Made by a program: the position numbers and the translations under genes
Shown: one piece after another, positions 3,650 through 64,000 of the stretch
How positions within the stretch are numbered: position 1 is the first letter of the stretch
Layout of the letters: every line of letters starts with the position of its first letter
The notes under the pieces: model-generated
What the model was told of the DNA's origin: nothing
The model's database searches: none
What the model saw: only the letters and a program-made list of their open reading frames with translations
Assembly: GCA_041651055.1 (NCBI GenBank)
Contig: JBAZJW010000002.1
Location: 26,980 to 90,979 of the forward strand
Direction of reading: 5' to 3'
Source of the DNA: Minisyncoccota bacterium
Lineage (GTDB): Bacteria > Patescibacteriota > Minisyncoccia > Phycocordibacterales > UBA5272
DNA: 64,000 bases

Positions 3650-3677
3650 TTTACTTCCTTTGCGAATGCAGTATAAT
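3650..3677 (+). promoter_or_regulatory. Sigma70-like promoter TTTACT-N16-TATAAT
   Basis: TTTACT 3650-3655, 16-nt spacer, TATAAT 3672-3677, upstream of the 3698 gene. Confidence 0.5.
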
Positions 3678-10371: not shown

Positions 10372-10399
10372 TTTACCTTTGCGGTAGTGGTGGTATAAT
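10372..10399 (+). promoter_or_regulatory. Sigma70-like promoter TTTACC-N16-TATAAT
   Basis: Motif match upstream of 10406. Confidence 0.45.
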
Positions 10400-15848: not shown

Positions 15849-16466
15849 GTGCGGAAAAGCAAGGAATTTTATATTGCCAGGACCGCCTCTGTCCGTGAGT
15901 TGTATTTACTGGGGGTTGGCGTTCATCAGATAAAGAAATATCTGAATGTGCCTAATGGTACAAGTGTCAAGAATATGGTTAAGGATTTGGAATACGGATC
16001 AGATTTTGATTTGGACGCTGTTTGTTTATATATTCTTCATAGAGGTGATGTAGTAGAACTGTACTGTAATGAACACAAATCTATAGCGTTTATTGCAAAT
16101 AAGTATAGTGTAAAAGGTGCTGTCATAAAGCAGGTGCTCAAAACTGTGGGCGTTGTTATTGACAACCGCAGGCGCATGAGCGAACTAGAAGAAAAGACGC
16201 TGTGCGCAGTAAAATTACTTGGATGGACACCATTTGGTGGTATGTGGTTAATGGGCGCAAACAAAATTAACTGGATAATTCATGAGCACGAAGAAAGAGT
16301 GAGCCGCAAAAGAGTAGGTAAAATAGAACAAAAGAAAATCGAGCAACCAATTAGACCTGAGCTAAGTAAGATCAAGGATGCGGCGCACCAAAATGTGGGT
16401 GTGTTTTTGAATGCGCGAGAGTGTCAAAGGCTGTACCTGATAAACTTGGATTACAGCAAAATATGA
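15849..16466 (+). CDS. Hypothetical protein with HTH-like N-terminus
   Basis: ORF. Confidence 0.45.
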   Translation: MRKSKEFYIARTASVRELYLLGVGVHQIKKYLNVPNGTSVKNMVKDLEYGSDFDLDAVCLYILHRGDVVELYCNEHKSIAFIANKYSVKGAVIKQVLKTVGVVIDNRRRMSELEEKTLCAVKLLGWTPFGGMWLMGANKINWIIHEHEERVSRKRVGKIEQKKIEQPIRPELSKIKDAAHQNVGVFLNARECQRLYLINLDYSKI

Positions 16467-16494
16467 CCACACATGACCATACGTTGTGGGTATA

Positions 16495-16522
16495 TTTACT
16501 CCCTGACGATTGATGGTATAAT
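16495..16522 (+). promoter_or_regulatory. Sigma70-like promoter TTTACT-N16-TATAAT driving the ORF-free GC-rich interval
   Basis: TTTACT 16495-16500, 16-nt spacer, TATAAT 16517-16522. Confidence 0.55.
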
Positions 16523-16528
16523 ACATTT

Positions 16529-17950
16529 GAAGATAGCAGAGATCATTGGAAATCGGCGGCACTAGAAAAAGCCAAGAAATGGAGGTTAAATATGGACTGG
16601 TCGAGTACAAAGCCCTGACCAAGCTTTGACGTACGGCAGAGCGAGGAAGGGATCTTCAAGCTTGTGTGGTGTGCTGGTCTGGCCAGGCTAACACAGGTGC
16701 GAGGAAGAGTATTGGACCGTGAAAGTACGCCCCCAGGGATGGGACGCCACCCTGGAGTCACGGTTTCCTTGAAATCCAAAATCTAAGAAAGATGGTGCTC
16801 CAATGCGCTAGTTTGATTTGACACCAAACCGTTTGACATGTGAATGCTGAAAGACGAAAGTGTGATTGAGTATAACAAATTAATGGAGCGCAAATGCTGT
16901 GGCGGTATAAATCCGTAAGGCACCATGTTCTTTGAAAAGTAATGTTCTTCTAACCAGGTGCGTGTGGCGACCGAAGACTTTTGTTGTTTTCGGTTTTGTG
17001 CTAACAGGTATTTGGTTAGAGGAAAAGGAGGCTGGCTTACGTTGCCGGAAAACTGGCGGGCTAGCACGCTGTGTGGTGGTAGAAATCCACAAGCCTCCTT
17101 CGTTCTTTGAAAAGTAATGGCTGATGTGGTGGAAAACCGCCCCGCGATTGACTGTCGCACATCATTTGATCCTGGGAGGGCTTGATCACCCTCCCCGATA
17201 AAATGACTGGTGTGGGGTGCCTACGTGCTGGGCTCAAACCATCCAATAGTCAAGGAAAGCGAGCACGCGCATCAGCCAGTTCTTTGAAAAGCGGGTGTTG
17301 CGATCTTATGTTGATGTGCACAGAGACATAAGACAGGCGACTTGCTACTGCCACGGTGGGATGCAAGTGTGGTTCAATTCCACGAACGCCCATTCTGTTC
17401 TTTGAATTTTTGCGGTTTGGCTCGTGCTACCGTTCCGTGCAAACCGGTACTGTCTGGTAGAGTCAGGCCACGAGCCAATAATGTTCCCGAACTGCATACC
17501 GGCGGTCGTGCAGGCGGTTGGTGTGTGGTCGGGATCTGGGGGCCTGATTAGCCCCGCCTACTCCAGGGTGCCCTTAAGTGGACGCCTAAGTGGTGCCGCC
17601 GCAGTGCGACGCCCGGAGTAGTTGTCCCACTGCATTGGTAGATGCAGTGTGTTCGTGCCTGTGCTAAAGGACGAACATGGGGAGCCGCCGTCCCCTAGGA
17701 GCAAGGAGATGTCCTACCAGAGCATCGAACGGCACTTTTGGAATCGCTTAGGGCAGCATCCTTGGCACATGGGCCTAACGTCGGATGGCCAACTACGTGC
17801 ACGGGATGCTGCCCATTGTTGCAGGTGAAGCATGAAGATCTTGATCCTAGAAGACTCTGCGAACGCTGTTGGGTGGAACAACATCAAGGCGGCGTTGCCC
17901 AATGCTATCAAGGCACCCAATCTGTGGGAGTACTTTGATGAAGTGTTCAG
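16529..17950 (+). ncRNA. Candidate large structured non-coding RNA region (GC-rich, no ORF, internal repeats)
   Basis: About 1.4 kb with only short ORFs on either strand. GC is visibly higher than the flanks. Four copies of GTTCTTTGAA(AAG) at 16927, 17102, 17279 and 17397. Many GC hairpins, e.g. GGGAGGG-N9-CCCTCCC and a T-arm-like GTGGTTCAATTCCAC. A promoter sits immediately upstream. Confidence 0.4.
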
Positions 17951-17965
17951 GATGCTGAAACTGCC

Positions 17966-18271
17966 GTGATAACTTCACCAAATGGGTGGTTGTCACCTGA
18001 TGGTGTTTTTCATGAATGTGCACACGCAAGGCACGCTGATTGTGCCGGGAAAATAGCTAGAAGTCACTTACCAGAAAATGAGCCCATTTTTGACTCAGAA
18101 AAGATATTAGAAGAGTGGGGGTATATTAAGATACTTGACGGCGGGGCATGTGTGGCGTATGCTACTGGCGTGGTACACAAAAGGCCGACGCAAGCACAAA
18201 TCGATGCGGTGTTCGATTACCACCAGAAATGTAGGAAGGAACTTCCATATTGGATTGGAGAGCAGGAATGA
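17966..18271 (+). CDS. Hypothetical protein
   Basis: ORF; the start codon is uncertain (GTG). Confidence 0.4.
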   Translation: MITSPNGWLSPDGVFHECAHARHADCAGKIARSHLPENEPIFDSEKILEEWGYIKILDGGACVAYATGVVHKRPTQAQIDAVFDYHQKCRKELPYWIGEQE

Positions 18272-18687: not shown

Positions 18688-18785
18688 AGCTGTTGCTGTT
18701 GGCATTACTGCTGTTTGTGGTTCGTTTGCTAATCATTGACAATCATTAATCTACATCATAAATAAATAGAGTATAATGCAAGGTG

Positions 18786-20699
18786 ATGGGTGCTGCACTG
18801 AATATGAAAGATGGCCTGTTCCGTGACATAGATAATATCATAAATGGGGAAAGTATAAGTACTTTTACCAGTGTGGTGAATACTGGTTTAGTGACCCTCG
18901 AACGCCCACCAAATGAAGTAGTTTTTATAGAATCACCTAAATTTCTAAATGGCCCAAAGGAGCTGTGGCCAGAACAGTATAGGTTTACAAGAGACTTCTA
19001 CGAGCTTAGTTGTCCTGTCTGCAATGACTTGGACAAAATGTACCGTGGTGGTGAAATTAAAAGAGAAGACGATGTACTGTTTGAGTATAATGTGTGTCCA
19101 AAATGTGGTGCTAGAAAAGAAGATGTTGTAGAAGCACTCAATTTTTATTATAGCATTAACGGTGTGGTGGGGATGCGTTCCGGTAAGTCTACTGGCATGG
19201 GGTGTTTTTTGGCTGCATTTACTGCCGATATTTTGTGTGTACCTGATCTGCACAAAAAGCTGGGTATAGTTGAATCGGATGCTTTGGATGGCACGTTTGT
19301 GGCCGCTGCACAAAAGCAAGCTTCAGATACTATATGGAGCAAATTTAAGGGCATGTATGATAATAGTCCTTGGTTCCAGTACTACAAACATGCTTTGCTT
19401 GATATTGAGGTGAACGATAAGCGGTTTAGGCGCGGTGAGTTGTACTGGGAGACAGACAATCTCATACACTGGCAAGATAAACACATACGGCTTACTGCTG
19501 TGCCCACCAACTCAGCTACGCAGGCTGGACGCACGCGCATTTTTGCGGTGATAGACGAGCTGGCTAGGTTAGACTCAGGAGAAAGCAAGCGGTCTGCATC
19601 AGAAGTGTACCGCGTGCTTGAAAACTCATTGTACACTGTGCGTCAAGCTGTGTCTGAGTTGCGTGCAAAAGGCAATATAGAGATACCAGATGCTGTGATG
19701 GCTTCTATATCTTCCCCGTTGTTTCAAACCGACAAGTCTATGAGTCTGTTGGATGATGCTAAGATCGACAAGCGCATATATGCTTTCAAGAAGGCTACGT
19801 GGGAATTCAATCCACACTCCAAAAAAGAAGATTTTGCTTCATTATACGCACGCGATCCGATAGGCACAGAGCGCGATTTTGGTGCCAACCCGCCTGGAGC
19901 CGAAAACCCGTTTATTAAGGACCCAAACATAATCAAGGCATGCACGGATTACAAGCGCACCTCGTGTTTTACTCTTAGAGAAAATTACTTTGATCTCAAA
20001 GCAGGAACAGAAGGTAATGAAGCTACATTCCATTTTGTGAAGATGGATATTTTGAATATGTCTTATATGAATTTAGCTGAGTACGTGATACACTGTGACC
20101 CAGGCGAAACCGGAGACAGCTTTTCACTTACACTAGCACACAAACAAGACGGTGTTTGTTGTATAGACGGTTACATAGAAATACGCCCGGTTCCGGAGGG
20201 AAGTCAATTTAGTAAAGTACCTCGTTCCGTACACTTTCCCTCAGTGGTGAATTTGATATTGGCTTTGCACAAAAAGATAAAAATCAGATTGGTGACATAC
20301 GACAAATGGAATAGTACTGAACAAATACACCGCCTCATAGATGCAGGTATTATAGCCATAGGTAAAAACCTGACCAGGGATGATCATCTAAATTTCCTGG
20401 AAGGTTTGAATAGTGGTTGGGTTAGTATGCCTGCACCGGAAGTAGAGGTAGCCGATCCTTCAAATATGAGAAATGTGCCGTGTGCCCAGGCACTGTATGA
20501 ATTGAGTAAATTAAATGATAATGGAGCAAAAGTAGATCACCCACCGTATGGTCACAACGACATTATACAGGGCGGGGTTGGGGTATACCGATCTTTGATG
20601 CATCCAGACCTAATACCAATTGAAAAGAAAAAGACCAAACAAACGTGGCAAAACCGACAGAAAGTGCCGCCAGTTACTTTAACCAGACTTAGACGTTAG
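18786..20699 (+). CDS. terL: Terminase large subunit with an N-terminal zinc-ribbon insertion
   Basis: Walker A VGMRSGKSTG; C-terminal nuclease-type region; CPVCNDL...CPKCG ribbon; size about 637 aa. Confidence 0.85.
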   Translation: MGAALNMKDGLFRDIDNIINGESISTFTSVVNTGLVTLERPPNEVVFIESPKFLNGPKELWPEQYRFTRDFYELSCPVCNDLDKMYRGGEIKREDDVLFEYNVCPKCGARKEDVVEALNFYYSINGVVGMRSGKSTGMGCFLAAFTADILCVPDLHKKLGIVESDALDGTFVAAAQKQASDTIWSKFKGMYDNSPWFQYYKHALLDIEVNDKRFRRGELYWETDNLIHWQDKHIRLTAVPTNSATQAGRTRIFAVIDELARLDSGESKRSASEVYRVLENSLYTVRQAVSELRAKGNIEIPDAVMASISSPLFQTDKSMSLLDDAKIDKRIYAFKKATWEFNPHSKKEDFASLYARDPIGTERDFGANPPGAENPFIKDPNIIKACTDYKRTSCFTLRENYFDLKAGTEGNEATFHFVKMDILNMSYMNLAEYVIHCDPGETGDSFSLTLAHKQDGVCCIDGYIEIRPVPEGSQFSKVPRSVHFPSVVNLILALHKKIKIRLVTYDKWNSTEQIHRLIDAGIIAIGKNLTRDDHLNFLEGLNSGWVSMPAPEVEVADPSNMRNVPCAQALYELSKLNDNGAKVDHPPYGHNDIIQGGVGVYRSLMHPDLIPIEKKKTKQTWQNRQKVPPVTLTRLRR

Positions 20700-52972: not shown

Positions 52973-53428
52973 ATGAACATACTCTTCTTAGACTTTGACG
53001 GCGTGTTTATCTGCTGTGCCGGTCCCTCTGCACGATTGCCTTATCCTCCTGCTGTAGATGCACTGAACGATTTAATCAAGCGTACCAATTCTCAAGTGGT
53101 GGTGTCTTCTGCATGGCGCATTGGCTGGACCATTGAGAAGCTGCAGCAGACCTTAGATGAGTTTGGTGTGTGGTGTAAGGTAATCGGAAAAACATGCAAT
53201 ACTACATACGATCATGATAGCAATAAACAAAGCACTAGGGGCGAGGAGATTGCTGAGTGGTTGGGTGAGTGCGGCTTTGGGCACCGTGTGACAGATTTTG
53301 TCGTTGTCGATGACGAGACTTGTGACATGACCAACTTACCACAAGACAAGATCTTATATGTTGAAGACGGTTGGTTTAACAAAGGGCTGACTCAAGAGAT
53401 GGTGGACAAGTTTCTAGAAAGGAAGTAA
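52973..53428 (+). CDS. HAD-superfamily phosphatase
   Basis: Motif I FLDFDGV, motif II VVVSSAW, motif IV DFVVVDDE. Confidence 0.6.
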   Translation: MNILFLDFDGVFICCAGPSARLPYPPAVDALNDLIKRTNSQVVVSSAWRIGWTIEKLQQTLDEFGVWCKVIGKTCNTTYDHDSNKQSTRGEEIAEWLGECGFGHRVTDFVVVDDETCDMTNLPQDKILYVEDGWFNKGLTQEMVDKFLERK

Positions 53429-53433
53429 AGGAA

Positions 53434-53640
53434 ATGCATAAAAGATATCATGATTATATTGAAGCGCTGTCAATCTTCATGAAGTATGATCCGGACGGTA
53501 CATGCGTATTGTGCGCCGAACACGATGTTATATATGCACTTGTAGATACTAAAAAAATCTCTGCACAAGATCTCAATAAGCTGAAGGAACTTGGATGGTG
53601 TATAACTAATGATGGTAAAAGTTTTTATACGTACACATAA
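53434..53640 (+). CDS. Small protein, paralog of the 13942 gene
   Basis: See the 13942 entry. Confidence 0.45.
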   Translation: MHKRYHDYIEALSIFMKYDPDGTCVLCAEHDVIYALVDTKKISAQDLNKLKELGWCITNDGKSFYTYT

Positions 53641-53769
53641 CAAGGAGATCTTTCCATAAAAACTAAAGCGTGCTTTGTAAGACACCTCGTGTCCAGAGTA
53701 CATGGAAGGATCGCGTTTTGAACTCATGCGCTGGGCAGCAGGCAGTGGATGGATGCGTGGGAGAGCAAA

Positions 53770-53964
53770 ATGAAAGAGATTAACAAGCAGGTAATGCGAG
53801 TAGACTGCTCTCCGCTGAACCCGAAGCAGTGGTGCCTGACGCTGGAGTGTGGGCATGAGATGTGGGTGACCAGCAAGCGGCGTCCGACTAGAAGGAAAGT
53901 TGTTTGCGTCGAGTGCAAAATGCAGTACGGGAACATTGCGCCCAAGGAGGAGGTGGAGGGATGA
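53770..53964 (+). CDS. Small zinc-ribbon protein, paralog of the 46441 gene
   Basis: PLNPKQWCLTLECGHEMWVTSKRRP. Confidence 0.45.
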   Translation: MKEINKQVMRVDCSPLNPKQWCLTLECGHEMWVTSKRRPTRRKVVCVECKMQYGNIAPKEEVEG

Positions 53965-54164
53965 GCGATACCGTTGACGAAGGAACGATCCAGGATCTCC
54001 AGTGCTACATCATTACCCTGGAGTCCGAGTTACGTAGCATCAAGAAAGCGGCTGAGTTATTTTATGCAAGCCACACCCACGGAAACGTAATCTGTGCTGT
54101 GTGCGAGGCAGTAAAGCAGGTAATGGCATTGCTCCAGATGGTAAAAAGTTGTAATACACCATGA
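53961..54164 (+). CDS. Hypothetical small protein
   Basis: RBS ggaggtggaggg. Confidence 0.4.
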   Translation: MSDTVDEGTIQDLQCYIITLESELRSIKKAAELFYASHTHGNVICAVCEAVKQVMALLQMVKSCNTP

Positions 54165-54177
54165 AAGTGAGTGACTT

Positions 54178-54414
54178 GTGAGAACTAAGACTAAGAAGAA
54201 CACTGTTGAAGCCAGGCTTGATCGTCTAGAACAAATCGCACAGTTGGTGCTCAAACATATCAGCGCAGCGGGTGACAGAAACCGAATTTACGCCAACAAG
54301 AAGATGGCAATGCAGGCTGATGCTGAGGCAGATCGCTTGTGGTGCATGCAGGCACAGGAAAATCAAACGGTGGCGATCAAATTTCTACAAGAAATGGAGA
54401 GGAACAAGTCATGA
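54178..54414 (+). CDS. Hypothetical protein
   Basis: GTG start. Confidence 0.4.
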   Translation: MRTKTKKNTVEARLDRLEQIAQLVLKHISAAGDRNRIYANKKMAMQADAEADRLWCMQAQENQTVAIKFLQEMERNKS

Positions 54415-54518
54415 GAGCCCGTGCGATGCGTTATCAGAAGGCCCAAGAGAAGAGACAGGCGCGTAATAAGAAGAAGCGCGCTGCTACCAGACGTTTCCAA
54501 AATGCTAAGGCGCACTGA
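54411..54518 (+). CDS. Candidate 35-aa highly basic micro-protein (MRARAMRYQKAQEKRQARNKKKRAATRRFQNAKAH)
   Basis: ATGA overlap with the upstream stop (translational coupling). Confidence 0.3.
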   Translation: MRARAMRYQKAQEKRQARNKKKRAATRRFQNAKAH

Positions 54519-54624
54519 GTAGTTGATTTGTCTCTTTATTTTCCTTTTCACTAAACACACCTTAAATTCCTTATCTTAGAAAGTAATATACTTGTCCTTG
54601 GTGTAATAACCAAGGAGCGAGTAA

Positions 54625-61023: not shown

Positions 61024-62262
61024 ATGGTAACATTGTTGGCAGTGTTTTTGTCTCATAAAATACGTCTTTATCCAAATGACAAACAGGTGTCTTACCTGAA
61101 ACGTGCTTGTGGTATCAAGCGTTTTGCTTATAATTGGGCGTTAGCTGAGTCTAGAAAACTATATGAGCAAGGCATAAAAACTTCCGGTTACGATCTCAGT
61201 AAACGATTTAACGCAATAAAACGGGAACAGTTTCCTTTCGTACTAGAAGTATCAAAATGGGTGTCTCAAAAAGCCATTTATGATCTTGAAGACGCTTACA
61301 AAAATTGGTGGAGTAAACGTGCGCGTGCCCCCAAATTCAAGAAAAAAGGTAAGTGCAAAGATAGTTTTTATCTGGCCAATGATGCAACAAAAACTGTTGA
61401 GCACAGAATTTATATTTCTAAGTGTGGGTGGGTGCGCATGTCTCAGTCTTTGCGTTTTCCTGGTCACGTGATGTCTGTAGTAATTTCAAGTGAATATGCT
61501 AAGTGGCATGCTTCTATCCAAGTGGAATTGGACGGCACCTGGTCTTGTCCTCATACTTGCAAAACCCAAGCAGTGTGTGGATTGGACATGGGTGTACGTG
61601 ACTTAGTGGTATTAGATGATGGCACTAAGTACTTAGCCCCTAGGAGTCTGCGTAAGTCCGAGAAAAAGTTGAAGAGACTGAATCGTGTAGTCTCAAGGAG
61701 GGTAAAAGGATCAAACCGTAGGAAGAAAGCTGTGCATATACTAAGTAGAGTCCATGAGAAAGTGACTAACATACGCAAGGACTGTATACATAAGATCACT
61801 GCTAAACTAGTAGAAGACTACCGTATCATAGGTATGGAAGATTTGAACGTCAAGGGTATGATCAAAAATCATCACTTGGCCAAGTCTGTGTCTGATGCTG
61901 CGTTTGGTACAGTCAAAAGCCAATTGGAGTACAAGACTGAGCTGTCAGGATCAGTATTAGTCAAAGCAGATCGCTTTTACCCATCGAGTAAGATGTGTTC
62001 AAACTGTGGACATGTCTTAGACACTTTGCCGTTGCGTATACGTGTTTGGACTTGTCCTGGGTGCGGTGCAGTACATGATCGTGATGTCAATGCTGCTAAA
62101 AATTTACTAAATGTCGCCTTAAGGTATAAGGAGACTGTAAACGCTCGTGGAGTAGAAAGCTCTGGTACTGGTGATTTTACTAGTACGAAACTGTCTACTG
62201 TGAAGCGAGTACCCGGCAGCCGCAGACCAACGGTGGTTTCGGTTCAAGTCCGGGGTTCCTAA
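61024..62262 (+). CDS. tnpB: IS200/IS605-family TnpB (OrfB) RNA-guided nuclease
   Basis: RuvC-I GLDMGVRDLVV, RuvC-II IGMEDLNVKGM, zinc finger CSNCGH...CPGCGAVHDRDVNAAKNL; intact. Confidence 0.85.
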   Translation: MVTLLAVFLSHKIRLYPNDKQVSYLKRACGIKRFAYNWALAESRKLYEQGIKTSGYDLSKRFNAIKREQFPFVLEVSKWVSQKAIYDLEDAYKNWWSKRARAPKFKKKGKCKDSFYLANDATKTVEHRIYISKCGWVRMSQSLRFPGHVMSVVISSEYAKWHASIQVELDGTWSCPHTCKTQAVCGLDMGVRDLVVLDDGTKYLAPRSLRKSEKKLKRLNRVVSRRVKGSNRRKKAVHILSRVHEKVTNIRKDCIHKITAKLVEDYRIIGMEDLNVKGMIKNHHLAKSVSDAAFGTVKSQLEYKTELSGSVLVKADRFYPSSKMCSNCGHVLDTLPLRIRVWTCPGCGAVHDRDVNAAKNLLNVALRYKETVNARGVESSGTGDFTSTKLSTVKRVPGSRRPTVVSVQVRGS

Positions 62263-62897: not shown

Positions 62898-62899
62898 TA

Positions 62900-63208
62900 C
62901 TACTTTTTGGTGCAGCACCCGTCATCGAAGTAAAACCCGTCATCAGCTAAGAACTTCGCATCCTCTGCCGTATCCAGCAACGTTTCGAGGTATCTGCACA
63001 ACTGCCTAGAAGTTTTTGCTTCTCCCACGTTCTTGGAGGCTAATACCAGCATTTTCGTCAGCTTCTCGACAGTGGACAAGGTTTCTTGCCGGTCTGCGAG
63101 GGCATTGTGAAATACTACCTCAAACTGCTCGGCGGCATTTTTGGCAGCCGATGCTTTGGAGAATTCTACCTGCGCTGTGTGCATCATATCTGACAGTTTC
63201 TTTAGCAT
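62900..63208 (-). CDS. Hypothetical protein
   Basis: Minus-strand ORF in the GC-rich island. Confidence 0.45.
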   Translation of the reverse strand: MLKKLSDMMHTAQVEFSKASAAKNAAEQFEVVFHNALADRQETLSTVEKLTKMLVLASKNVGEAKTSRQLCRYLETLLDTAEDAKFLADDGFYFDDGCCTKK

Positions 63209-63225
63209 AGTGTGTCTCTTTTTGT

Positions 63226-63477
63226 CTAGGCCAAGCCATCTCTGCCGAGCCTGATATCTTCAATCTTCATCAAAGCTTCCAGGTGTGTGTTCAGAGCGCG
63301 CTTGGCGGCTGCTACGGATTCGAACTCACCCAACCAACACCCGTCTGATCCCTGTGCCACACACGGTTCATGTCCTGCTTCGATGGCTGTCTTGTACAGT
63401 ATCAGGATCAGACACTCTTGAAAACTCCCGTGCTTTCCGATCCACCTGCTGCCAAATTTGGTCCACTGATAGCCCAT
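63226..63477 (-). CDS. Hypothetical protein
   Basis: Minus-strand ORF. Confidence 0.45.
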   Translation of the reverse strand: MGYQWTKFGSRWIGKHGSFQECLILILYKTAIEAGHEPCVAQGSDGCWLGEFESVAAAKRALNTHLEALMKIEDIRLGRDGLA

Positions 63478-63501
63478 ACTAATGCTCCTTTGTTAGGACG
63501 T

Positions 63502-63612
63502 TTAGCAGCAGCACCGCACCACAGCAACGGTGATCGCCGCTACGATGATTGCGTCCGCGATCTTGGCCCACCAAGGCATGATGGCCCACGTCATCTTGAT
63601 CCTCTTCCACAT
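63502..63612 (-). CDS. 36-aa hydrophobic peptide (MWKRIKMTWAIMPWWAKIADAIIVAAITVAVVRCCC)
   Basis: GGAGG RBS 5 nt upstream; it is the first gene after the minus-strand promoter. Confidence 0.4.
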   Translation of the reverse strand: MWKRIKMTWAIMPWWAKIADAIIVAAITVAVVRCCC

Positions 63613-63630
63613 TGAACGCCTCCTACGAAT

Positions 63631-63659
63631 ATTATACCACGTTTATTATACTCAGTCAA
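63631..63659 (-). promoter_or_regulatory. Consensus sigma70 promoter on the minus strand (TTGACT-N17-TATAAT)
   Basis: Reverse complement of 63631-63659 reads TTGACTgagtataataaacgtggTATAAT. Confidence 0.6.
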
Positions 63660-63683
63660 TGTACGCGCATGTATGATATGTGA

Positions 63684-63860
63684 CTACCAGTAGTCTGCCA
63701 GGTTACTCCAAGAAACGCGCACAGTGTCTTGCTCATAAGCACCGTTCACTAGTTTGCGCAGGAACTTGAGGAACACCTCTTCCGTGGGGGCGGTGAGTAC
63801 CACCACTTCATTGACCTTGCCGTCCCTGTCCAGTACCATAATCGTGCACGTGGTCTTCAT
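63684..63860 (-). CDS. 58-aa hypothetical protein
   Basis: Minus-strand ORF with GGAG RBS. Confidence 0.4.
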   Translation of the reverse strand: MKTTCTIMVLDRDGKVNEVVVLTAPTEEVFLKFLRKLVNGAYEQDTVRVSWSNLADYW

Positions 63861-64000
63861 TTGGAGATCTCCTTTTCGTTATCCATCAAAAATAAAGACG
63901 CATGAGAGGTGTTGTTCCTGACATCTAAATTTATGCTTATTTGTGTCTGATGAATTTTAATTGAACGTGTGTGTTGTATAGTATCATAATCGCAGGATCA

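Follow-up and report, generated by a model that had tools for sequence, protein, structure and literature searches.

A 64,000-nt stretch of phage DNA (the window) carries, 0.8 kb upstream of the gene for the large terminase (TerL), a long interval that is free of open reading frames (ORFs), has an excess of RNA structure and is punctuated by four copies of a short repeat, GTTCTTTGAA. Based on its sequence, this repeat is a boxA antitermination box of the type found in ribosomal RNA (rrn) operons and not a structural unit. We lean towards the view that the interval is an untranslated operon of ~1.3 kb for structured stable RNAs, on which host NusB/NusE would keep transcription processive. What is combined here is a phage stable-RNA cluster with rrn-type antitermination, and the RNA modules belong to no described family. 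The original prediction had described periodic repeats in a candidate large structured RNA; the repeats are present, but their identity as boxA changes the reading of the whole locus.

All four copies of GTTCTTTGAA are exact, lie on the plus strand (Table 1) and occur nowhere else in the window. The core 8-mers are found four times, against 0.01–0.03 expected in shuffles. The positions of the copies and the identity of the first two over 18 nt are as they had been predicted; the predicted spacing of about 176 nt holds for the first two distances (175 and 177 nt) and fails for the third (118 nt). GTTCTTTGAA is the rrn boxA of Firmicutes, an identity that was tested on rrn operons. In those found on Priestia and Listeria plasmid records, TTGTTCTTTGAAAACTAGATAA lies at +1668 and +1623, respectively, from the 16S start, which is the 16S–23S spacer, and the box of the window is identical to this spacer box over 12 of 12 nt. 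Close variants, GAACTTTGAAAA and GACCTTTGAAAA, are located directly downstream of the Priestia and Listeria rrn promoters. At 10 of 11 positions, the box also agrees with GYTCTTTAANA, the consensus of gammaproteobacteria (PMC5725501). As the RNA ligand for NusB–NusE it would read GUUCUUUGAAAAG. The fourth copy departs from the consensus at position 11. The 10-nt core is fully conserved in 4 of 4 copies, and the flanks of copies 3 and 4 are unlike those of copies 1 and 2; such a conserved core in diverged flanks argues for selection on the core and not for recent duplication. It is known that rrn nut-like elements are found in both leader and spacer (PMC8632103), and that boxA shields CRISPR arrays from Rho (PMC7665894). 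A boxC-like sequence, GTGTGG, occurs six times in 16664–17528 (1.4 expected) and its extension GTGTGGT four times (0.27 expected); how far these lie from the boxes varies. Literature text searches for the motif returned primer sequences only.

The boxes were also located relative to the predicted RNA structure. The partition function was calculated for 16529–17835 with the four boxes constrained to be unpaired, and the fold separates into domains that are each closed on their own: L, A, B1, B2, C, D and E, which makes seven, or eight if the terminal hairpin of E (E8) is counted separately. The closing helices have probabilities of 0.72–0.98. All four boxes are sense-oriented downstream of the promoter at 16495 and fall in linkers of at most 20 nt between closed domains, an arrangement in which the unpaired state was imposed on the fold and the transcript itself is presumed. 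On the 5' side, a helix ends 0–5 nt before the box; the observed helix was reached in 92, 34 and 2 of 1000 shuffles for boxes 1 to 3. On the 3' side, the next helix starts 2–10 nt after the box, and here 0, 2, 74 and 10 of 300 shuffles reached it for the four boxes in order.

The first domain, L, is a closed multibranch structure which contains the helices 16548–16555/16761–16768 (probability 0.98) and 16599–16608/16709–16718 (1.00). It also holds an 8-codon micro-ORF, MDWSSTKP (16583–16609), preceded at a distance of 7 nt by a strong GGAGG ribosome-binding site; this ORF may encode a leader peptide or have arisen by chance. The ends of modules A and B2 resemble each other: in A a T-arm-like hairpin, GCGG-UAUAAAU-CCGU, lies beside the 3' closing strand, and B2 ends with GUGG-UAGAAAU-CCAC. 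The last 48 nt of A are paralogous to the end of B2 (83% identical). The two hairpin stems differ by compensatory changes (GCGG/CCGU versus GUGG/CCAC), and the closing strands of each module match their own partner. The helix of B2 that abuts boxA-2 is the one matched by 34 of 1000 shuffles. Between A and B2 lies hairpin B1, which starts 6 nt after boxA-1 (0 of 300 shuffles) and, judging from the model, is a possible substrate of RNase III. Module C starts 4 nt after boxA-2 and ends at the base directly preceding boxA-3 (2 of 300 and 2 of 1000 shuffles for the two sides). It holds a GGGAGGG/CCCUCCC hairpin, which had been singled out in the DNA as GGGAGGG/CCCTCCC at 17174–17195 and has a pair probability of 1.00; the other hairpin named at that time, GTGG/CCAC at 17369–17383, reaches 0.99.

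Module D is a cloverleaf with a 7-bp acceptor-like stem (GGGUGUU/AACGCCC), two long arms, a discriminator A and a canonical T-arm, UGUGG-UUCAAUU-CCACG; it has no anticodon loop or arm and no D-arm. A tRNA-like minihelix consists of a 7-bp acceptor that runs on into a 5-bp T-stem, a 7-nt loop of the UUCRANY type and a discriminator, and module D has all of these. A and B2 have them in part, with 4-bp hairpins and 7-nt U..RA loops located 1–2 nt from the closing strand. The three modules with a T-arm-like hairpin (A, B2 and D) could, according to the model, be substrates of RNase P. The last domain, E, can be divided into a part proper, 17412–17747, which a weak 5-bp helix (17412–17416/17743–17747) may close in the model, and the terminal hairpin at 17751–17814.

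Table 1. Features of the ORF-free interval and its borders (positions in the window; MFE, minimum free energy; z, folding energy relative to shuffles)
Feature	Position	Strand	Description
Promoter TTTACT-N16-(TG)TATAAT, extended TG	16495-16522	+	promoter scan
Domain L, closed multibranch, ~254 nt	16531-16784	+	300-nt z = -4.2 at 16530
Module A	16792-16926	+	closed by ATGGTGCT/GGCACCAT, probability 0.91
boxA-1 GTTCTTTGAAAAG	16927-16939	+	exact repeat
Hairpin B1, imperfect, ~30 bp	16945-17024	+	MFE -42.9 kcal/mol, z = -8.5, 0/200 shuffles as stable
Module B2	17025-17100	+	closed by AAGGAGGC/GCCUCCUU, probability 0.88; z = -2.2
boxA-2 GTTCTTTGAAAAG	17102-17114	+	exact repeat
Module C, 161-nt multibranch	17118-17278	+	closed by UGGCUGAUGU/GCAUCAGCCA, probability 0.97
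boxA-3 GTTCTTTGAAAAG	17279-17291	+	exact repeat
Module D, 100-nt cloverleaf	17293-17392	+	MFE = centroid, -39.0 kcal/mol, z = -3.6
boxA-4 GTTCTTTGAAT	17397-17407	+	core kept; A-rich 3' part replaced by TTTTT
Domain E, GC-rich (0.57), eight stable hairpins	17412-17814	+	z = -3.6 (17407-17830); helices 0.7-1.0
Uncalled 45-amino-acid ORF	17832-17969	+	GGTG ribosome-binding site; stop overlaps GTG start of next gene

The region as a whole folds better than its composition would give. Eight overlapping 300-nt segments across it have folding z-scores of -2.1 to -4.8, negative in all, and 23 control segments elsewhere in the phage have a mean z of -0.05 (standard deviation 1.41). The other ORF-free gaps in the window are not consistently structured. 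In larger blocks, the plus strand gives z = -4.0 (16792–17392) and -3.6 (17407–17830), and the minus strand -2.5 and -3.4; the two strands are thus similar and folding energy alone barely picks between them. The plus strand is indicated by the promoter, the orientation of the repeats and the canonical T-arm.

The interval is also non-coding, as had been claimed. With 1499 nt and a GC content of 0.514, against about 0.42, 16467–17965 is the longest gap in the window without a plus-strand ORF of at least 90 amino acids, and the gene caller of the source contig left it empty as well. The GC content in successive 500-nt steps is 0.46, 0.52 and 0.57, which is above the ~0.40–0.45 of the flanks, again in agreement with the earlier description. 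There are 11–33 stops per frame in all six frames; all three kinds (TAA, TAG and TGA) occur in every frame, so that stop-codon recoding is no explanation and was rejected. The ten longest internal ORFs gave no Pfam or PHROGs match at E<=0.1. A hidden gene across 17406–17826, interrupted by a single in-frame TAG, was also rejected: its composition is unlike protein and it has no family match. With stops in all frames, no family and nothing similar at the DNA level in the phage or plasmid collections, the test for a coding gene or a pseudogene was negative. Coding and non-coding sequence were poorly resolved by a codon-usage log-odds scan, which was not used. The original prediction went too far in stating that no ORF exceeds ~70 codons and that none has a credible ribosome-binding site: a minus-strand ORF of 125 amino acids, without homologue, lies at 16783–17160, and the 45-amino-acid ORF at the 3' border has a GGTG site. 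This small ORF is probably a real gene, and the untranslated part would therefore end near 17830.

The promoter in front of the interval had been predicted correctly, and it can now be placed in a class that belongs to this phage. The class, tTTTACt-N15-GTATAAT, has six copies, at 3650, 9475, 10372, 16495, 18750 and 20726, all of them intergenic and on the plus strand. T.TAC and GTATAAT are invariant; the copy at 10372 reads TTTACC and that at 18750 is a variant. In five of the six, an ORF starts no more than ~30 nt downstream, and the one at 16495 is the exception, with 1.3 kb without a gene after it. The TATAAAT and TAGAAAT loops of modules A and B2 were considered as further promoters and rejected, as they have no usable -35 element and their flanking stems change compensatorily.

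One alternative that starts from the same promoter is that the interval forms a long, structured 5' leader for the genes behind it (the 45-amino-acid ORF, those for proteins of 101 and 145 amino acids, and perhaps the terminase operon), in which boxA would load Nus factors as in a nut-like region. No intrinsic terminator was found between the RNA domains and the 45-amino-acid ORF or the genes that follow it, the sole terminator-like site downstream being inside the next gene (17983), and all the genes are co-oriented. The C-terminal part of the 145-amino-acid protein matches a transcriptional-regulator PHROG (E = 4.6e-8), and the nut sites of phage lambda use boxA (PMC8632103). Nevertheless, 1.3 kb of GC-rich, domain-closed structure far exceeds what a nut site needs, TerL has its own promoter of the phage class at 18750, and elsewhere the box goes with stable RNA genes and not with the leaders of protein genes. 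We consider such a leader unlikely as the account of the interval, and note that it and a stable-RNA operon are compatible with each other.

Another question is whether the interval belongs to a known RNA family. In a search of the whole window with Rfam 15 at the gathering threshold, only two tRNAs were found (2784–2938), and at E<=10 nothing meaningful appeared in 16300–18200 or 17020–17400; the matches were at chance level (mir-124, DUF805b and an FMN fragment, E = 2.4–8.8) and far under the gathering scores. GOLLD (RF02032; gathering score 150 bits) was rejected, with no match at gathering or at E<=10, and the same tool scored true GOLLD RNAs in two IMG/VR phage loci at 315 bits (L031) and 321 bits (L098). 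GOLLD is embedded in or adjoins tRNA genes of a phage or prophage, and the nearest tRNAs here, the only two in the window, are 13.5 kb upstream and have no encoded CCA. ROOL, OLE, HEARO and raiA gave no covariance-model match at E<=10 either, and RNase P RNA had no match in Rfam 15. A tRNA was rejected as well: ARAGORN was negative at default settings and with introns, and RF00005 found nothing at E<=10 in 381 nt. The relaxed search that had been proposed, ARAGORN at lowered thresholds, gave noise on both strands. Transfer-messenger RNA (tmRNA) was detected neither by ARAGORN at default settings nor by RF00023, and there is no Intron_gpI or group-II intron match, with flanking ORFs that end and start normally.

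These results bear on the GOLLD/ROOL-type reading that had been put forward, which the model checks proposed with it do not bear out. A single large ornate RNA of a new class, 1.0–1.3 kb and possibly self-assembling, in which boxA serves only transcription or folding, would still fit the profile in size, GC enrichment, phage origin and dense structure. The true GOLLD of L031 and L098 is also preceded by the same boxA, and an 11-nt perfect long-range complement connects 16748–16758 with 17560–17570. However, about 0.3 such complements are expected by chance and both of its arms are also in local hairpins; the pair probabilities point to domains that are each closed locally and to few helices of long range, and a boxA in a single-stranded linker resembles the spacing between separate genes in tRNA arrays. 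A low probability is therefore what we give to one large RNA of this kind. The best fit is with the alternative that had been offered beside it, namely smaller structured RNAs or tRNA-like elements in tandem; the fold breaks into closed domains, and module D is a cloverleaf. Both the single large RNA and the leader fit the boxA finding, and they differ from the stable-RNA operon mainly in whether the domains are separated.

The same box was then found before stable RNAs in other phages. IMG/VR was scanned for two copies of GTTCTTTGAA that are 150–180 nt apart (46 loci) or 95–125 nt apart (51 loci), and ~40% of these two-copy matches are ORF-free. In two loci, boxA lies 3–5 nt upstream of the 5' end of a tmRNA (L007:2191-2605(+) and L038:1505-1870(-)); both have a second boxA 150–180 nt farther upstream, ahead of an unannotated stretch. 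In jumbo-phage arrays it is found just past promoters and between tRNAs (L008, L043, L049, L051, L098 and L107), and in L031 and L098 it precedes the conserved 3' domain of GOLLD by ~415–465 nt. In others (L015/L030/L047/L052, L037 and L119) it separates ORF-free structured modules without an Rfam match. The order of box and then 5' strand of a closing helix is also seen in L015, L030, L037 and L119. A literature search returned no paper connecting boxA with GOLLD or with the stable-RNA arrays of phages.

Several of these loci deserve a description of their own. L015:6697-7136(-), L030:1179-1613(-), L047:448-884(-) and L052 are AT-rich IMG/VR phages that share an ORF-free array of three boxA-separated modules. 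The third module, ~330 nt, is closed by a ~20-bp helix that begins 4 nt past the box. Five compensatory pairs were seen in this module, between two sequence types only; it has no Rfam match at E<=0.5 and is a candidate for a new phage RNA family. L119:195-700(+), L037:10728-11500(+) and L090/L092 are further boxA-punctuated arrays of closed modules without an Rfam family. The modules of L119 are closed by TGGAATGGTGG/CCACCATTCCA and TTGGAATCAAGG/CCTTGATTCCA, and a terminator-like hairpin ends its array. Five very AT-rich large-phage contigs of 158–448 kb (L081, L094, L097, L105 and L123) have an identical twice-repeated unit, in which boxA comes after a Bacteroidetes-type promoter. In cultured Acinetobacter phages, GOLLD lies within the tRNA array. 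The ~790-nt unannotated gap in the tRNA array of Acinetobacter phage Bestia (L075, 26115-26904) and of L076 is GOLLD-like at 65–67% identity, and in phage Ab15 the GOLLD-matching stretch is annotated as a hypothetical protein.

The distribution of the box also bears on whether the element acts as DNA, for example as a pac/cos packaging region or a replication origin, with the repeats as protein-binding sites and the hairpins incidental. A position so close to the terminase gene, repeats in one orientation and a small palindrome (TTC-TTT-GAA) in the core would be in line with this. The motif, though, is the rrn boxA, sense-oriented upstream of tmRNA, tRNA and GOLLD in unrelated phages; spacings of 118–177 nt are unlike iterons, and the excess of RNA folding energy extends over the whole 1.3 kb. 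In addition, four TerL relatives (50–59% identical) have no such gap and no boxA near the terminase gene. A DNA-level element is disfavoured, and we regard it as very improbable.

Homologues of the RNA itself were not found. Blastn in distant mode gave nothing in the phage collection or in the plasmid collection, and neither blastn nor nhmmer found a homologue among all the fetched loci. The 18-mer GTTCTTTGAAAAGTAATG had one match in IMG/VR (L002; 21–26 nt, E = 1e-3), taken as chance, and 18 matches in species-representative genomes against ~17 expected, in coding or unrelated sequence and without rrn context that would indicate a host. The pattern of a T-hairpin plus boxA is absent from IMG/VR and has one chance match in the JGI metagenomes, which is AT-rich and shows no other similarity.

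This lack of relatives is one reason to ask if the interval is a decaying remnant, either of a degenerate tRNA or stable-RNA array or of acquired GC-rich DNA that is no longer functional. T-arm- and acceptor-like fragments without an intact tRNA and a GC content that differs from the flanks can be read in this way, and the upstream 205-amino-acid protein (15849–16466), an ORFan, weakly matches a PHROG of HNH homing endonucleases (E = 1e-3). Decay, however, is hard to reconcile with four boxA cores that are perfectly kept in diverged flanks, an intact promoter of the phage's own class, negative folding z-scores in 8 of 8 segments and paralogous hairpins that differ by compensatory changes. We find a remnant quite improbable, and it is disfavoured together with the DNA-level element. 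By eye, the 205-amino-acid protein shows helix-turn-helix-like segments, and it may be a homing-endonuclease-like protein beside an insertion. Genes for homing endonucleases frequently adjoin mobile insertions.

Several points weigh against a boxA-punctuated operon of stable RNAs. No homologue of the RNA was found in the collections that were searched as DNA. boxA-2 and boxA-3 are mutually pairable (a 22-nt inverted repeat, 82% complementary), and the boxes could instead extend the stem of module C. The first boxA is ~400 nt past the putative start, a greater distance than in rrn leaders. Being rich in G and poor in C, the RNA offers no obvious substrate for Rho. Some individual modules are weak against shuffles (z = -1.4 for both A and C), and the closing helix of module D is not significant alone (74 of 300 shuffles). 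Finally, boxA is absent from GOLLD and the tRNA arrays in Acinetobacter phages; this rules out boxA as a universal companion of GOLLD, and the association of boxA with stable RNAs thus depends on lineage.

With these points taken into account, a mechanism can be suggested for the stable-RNA operon, in which we infer transcription, Nus factor binding, processing and a role of the released RNAs. Transcription would proceed rightward from the phage promoter at 16495, and each boxA, as it emerges, would be bound by host NusB–NusE(S10) and nucleate an rrn-type antitermination complex. Such a complex would make the polymerase Rho-resistant on a long RNA that ribosomes do not protect. It would also tether the 5' strand of the closing helix that follows, keeping it close to the RNA exit channel while the pairing strand is still to be synthesized, so that the helix can form; such tethering has been proposed for the leader–trailer helix of rRNA. 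A Rho-resistant, RNA-chaperoning elongation complex is known on rRNA (PMC8632103; PMC10250234). The domains would then probably be separated; RNase P could cut at A, B2 and D, and RNase III at B1. Cutting would remove the used boxA, and this would explain why a fresh box is found before each module.

As for function, our leading guess, an unsupported one, is tRNA mimicry or a role as decoys against host defences that target tRNA; it comes from the T-arm modules together with the RNA-repair-type HAD domain and the anti-defence genes elsewhere in the window. A wider and more tentative proposal is that the locus would be the first example of a new kind of phage stable-RNA operon, rrn-like and antiterminated by Nus factors, with a fresh boxA per module. 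RNase P and RNase III would free non-decoding tRNA-minihelix RNAs from it, which the phage would turn against defences directed at tRNA or employ to capture enzymes that handle tRNA. In this proposal, many phages place a host boxA before their stable RNAs. We would call this possible, though hardly probable.

The window comes from a metagenomic contig of 183,779 bp (ENA ERZ27247363, k141_3129229), which is a phage based on its TerL gene (18783–20699) and on nearly all of its genes being on the plus strand. The closest TerL proteins among cultured phages are those of jumbo phages, at no more than 31% identity, and the best metagenomic relative is 59% identical. At NCBI, the proteins of the contig are filed in a metagenome-assembled genome of Candidatus Paceibacterota; the reference to phages of low-GC Firmicutes, made in the original prediction, finds no support. 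The downstream 101-amino-acid protein is an ORFan among 5.8 billion proteins, and the flanking small proteins have no counterpart in four loci whose TerL is 50–59% identical.

Pfam matches among the 90 ORFs of the window include Tad6 (a Thoeris inhibitor), NADAR, dTDP-rhamnose enzymes (RmlD and an epimerase), endonuclease VII (87–593), a PD-(D/E)XK nuclease and the receiver domain of a response regulator; neither Ro60/Rsr nor RtcB is represented. A protein at 52973–53425 has the HAD domain of 'Swiss Army Knife' RNA-repair proteins (E = 5e-20). It is followed by the second-longest ORF-free gap (53429–54624, 1196 nt), in which only one 300-nt segment is structured (z = -3.1 at 53629). A GC-rich block (0.52–0.59) at 56.5–59.5 kb contains ORFs without a Pfam match. 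TnpB is encoded at 61024–62259 (OrfB_IS605 with Cas12f1-like TNB and helix-turn-helix domains), and the sequence 3' of it, 62898–64000, is ORF-free with a GC content of ~0.48–0.50; it has no Rfam match at the gathering threshold, omega-RNA not having been specifically sought.

The repeated host-type boxA between modules suggests a concrete mechanism for such loci, namely Nus-dependent protection from Rho and assisted closure of domains. As the box is found ahead of tmRNA, tRNA, GOLLD and unclassified RNAs, a motif of 10–13 nt could be a cheap marker for non-coding RNA genes of phages. If the wider proposal is true, Rho and the Nus factors would be a general constraint on the expression of phage non-coding RNA. 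If the modules are real and processed, a class of tRNA-minihelix-bearing RNAs would be added to the RNA repertoire of jumbo phages.

Known systems share parts of this organization. tRNA-like processing elements include the mitochondrial t-elements, mascRNA and the bacterial Y-RNA-like YrlA RNAs. In these, as in our modules, an acceptor and T-arm mimic without decoding could recruit RNase P or RNase Z, whereas there is no sequence or model match to them. GOLLD and ROOL have, to our knowledge, no known function, and we know of hardly any study of their expression. Like them, the interval is phage-borne, large, GC-enriched, ORF-free and rich in helices, and two IMG/VR GOLLD loci have the same upstream boxA; it differs in having no covariance-model score, no adjacent tRNAs and modular local closure instead of one large fold. 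With lambda nut it would share a phage-encoded boxA that recruits host Nus factors, but an N-like protein cannot be recognised, a boxB hairpin at a constant distance is missing, and its box is of the rrn type and not the weaker lambda variant. With CRISPR arrays it has in common a repetitive untranslated transcript other than rRNA on which a host boxA would act against Rho, yet the arrays have one boxA in the leader and here a box precedes almost every module (PMC7665894).

The nut-like elements of rrn operons share the 12-nt identical box, the long untranslated structured transcript, the repetition of the box along the operon and its location just 5' of the strands of long-range closing helices, like boxA ahead of the 16S leader–trailer helix. 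The differences are that the window has four copies in 480 nt and rrn two copies 1.6 kb apart, that the cargo is phage-encoded and is not rRNA, that there is no clear boxB or boxC, and that the first copy is ~400 nt from the putative start. Compared with phage tRNA and tmRNA arrays, the modules have no anticodon arm or D-arm, are undetected by ARAGORN and RF00005 and, at 76–161 nt, are larger than tRNAs. Module D shares with phage tRNAs a canonical T-arm, an acceptor minihelix and a discriminator base, and, like the two tRNAs of the window, it has no encoded CCA. The layout is the same as in the tRNA arrays of L008 and L043, where a structured RNA is followed by 1–5 nt, boxA, 3–8 nt and the next structured RNA, and the tmRNA loci L007 and L038 show the same order of box and then RNA ahead of the tmRNA.

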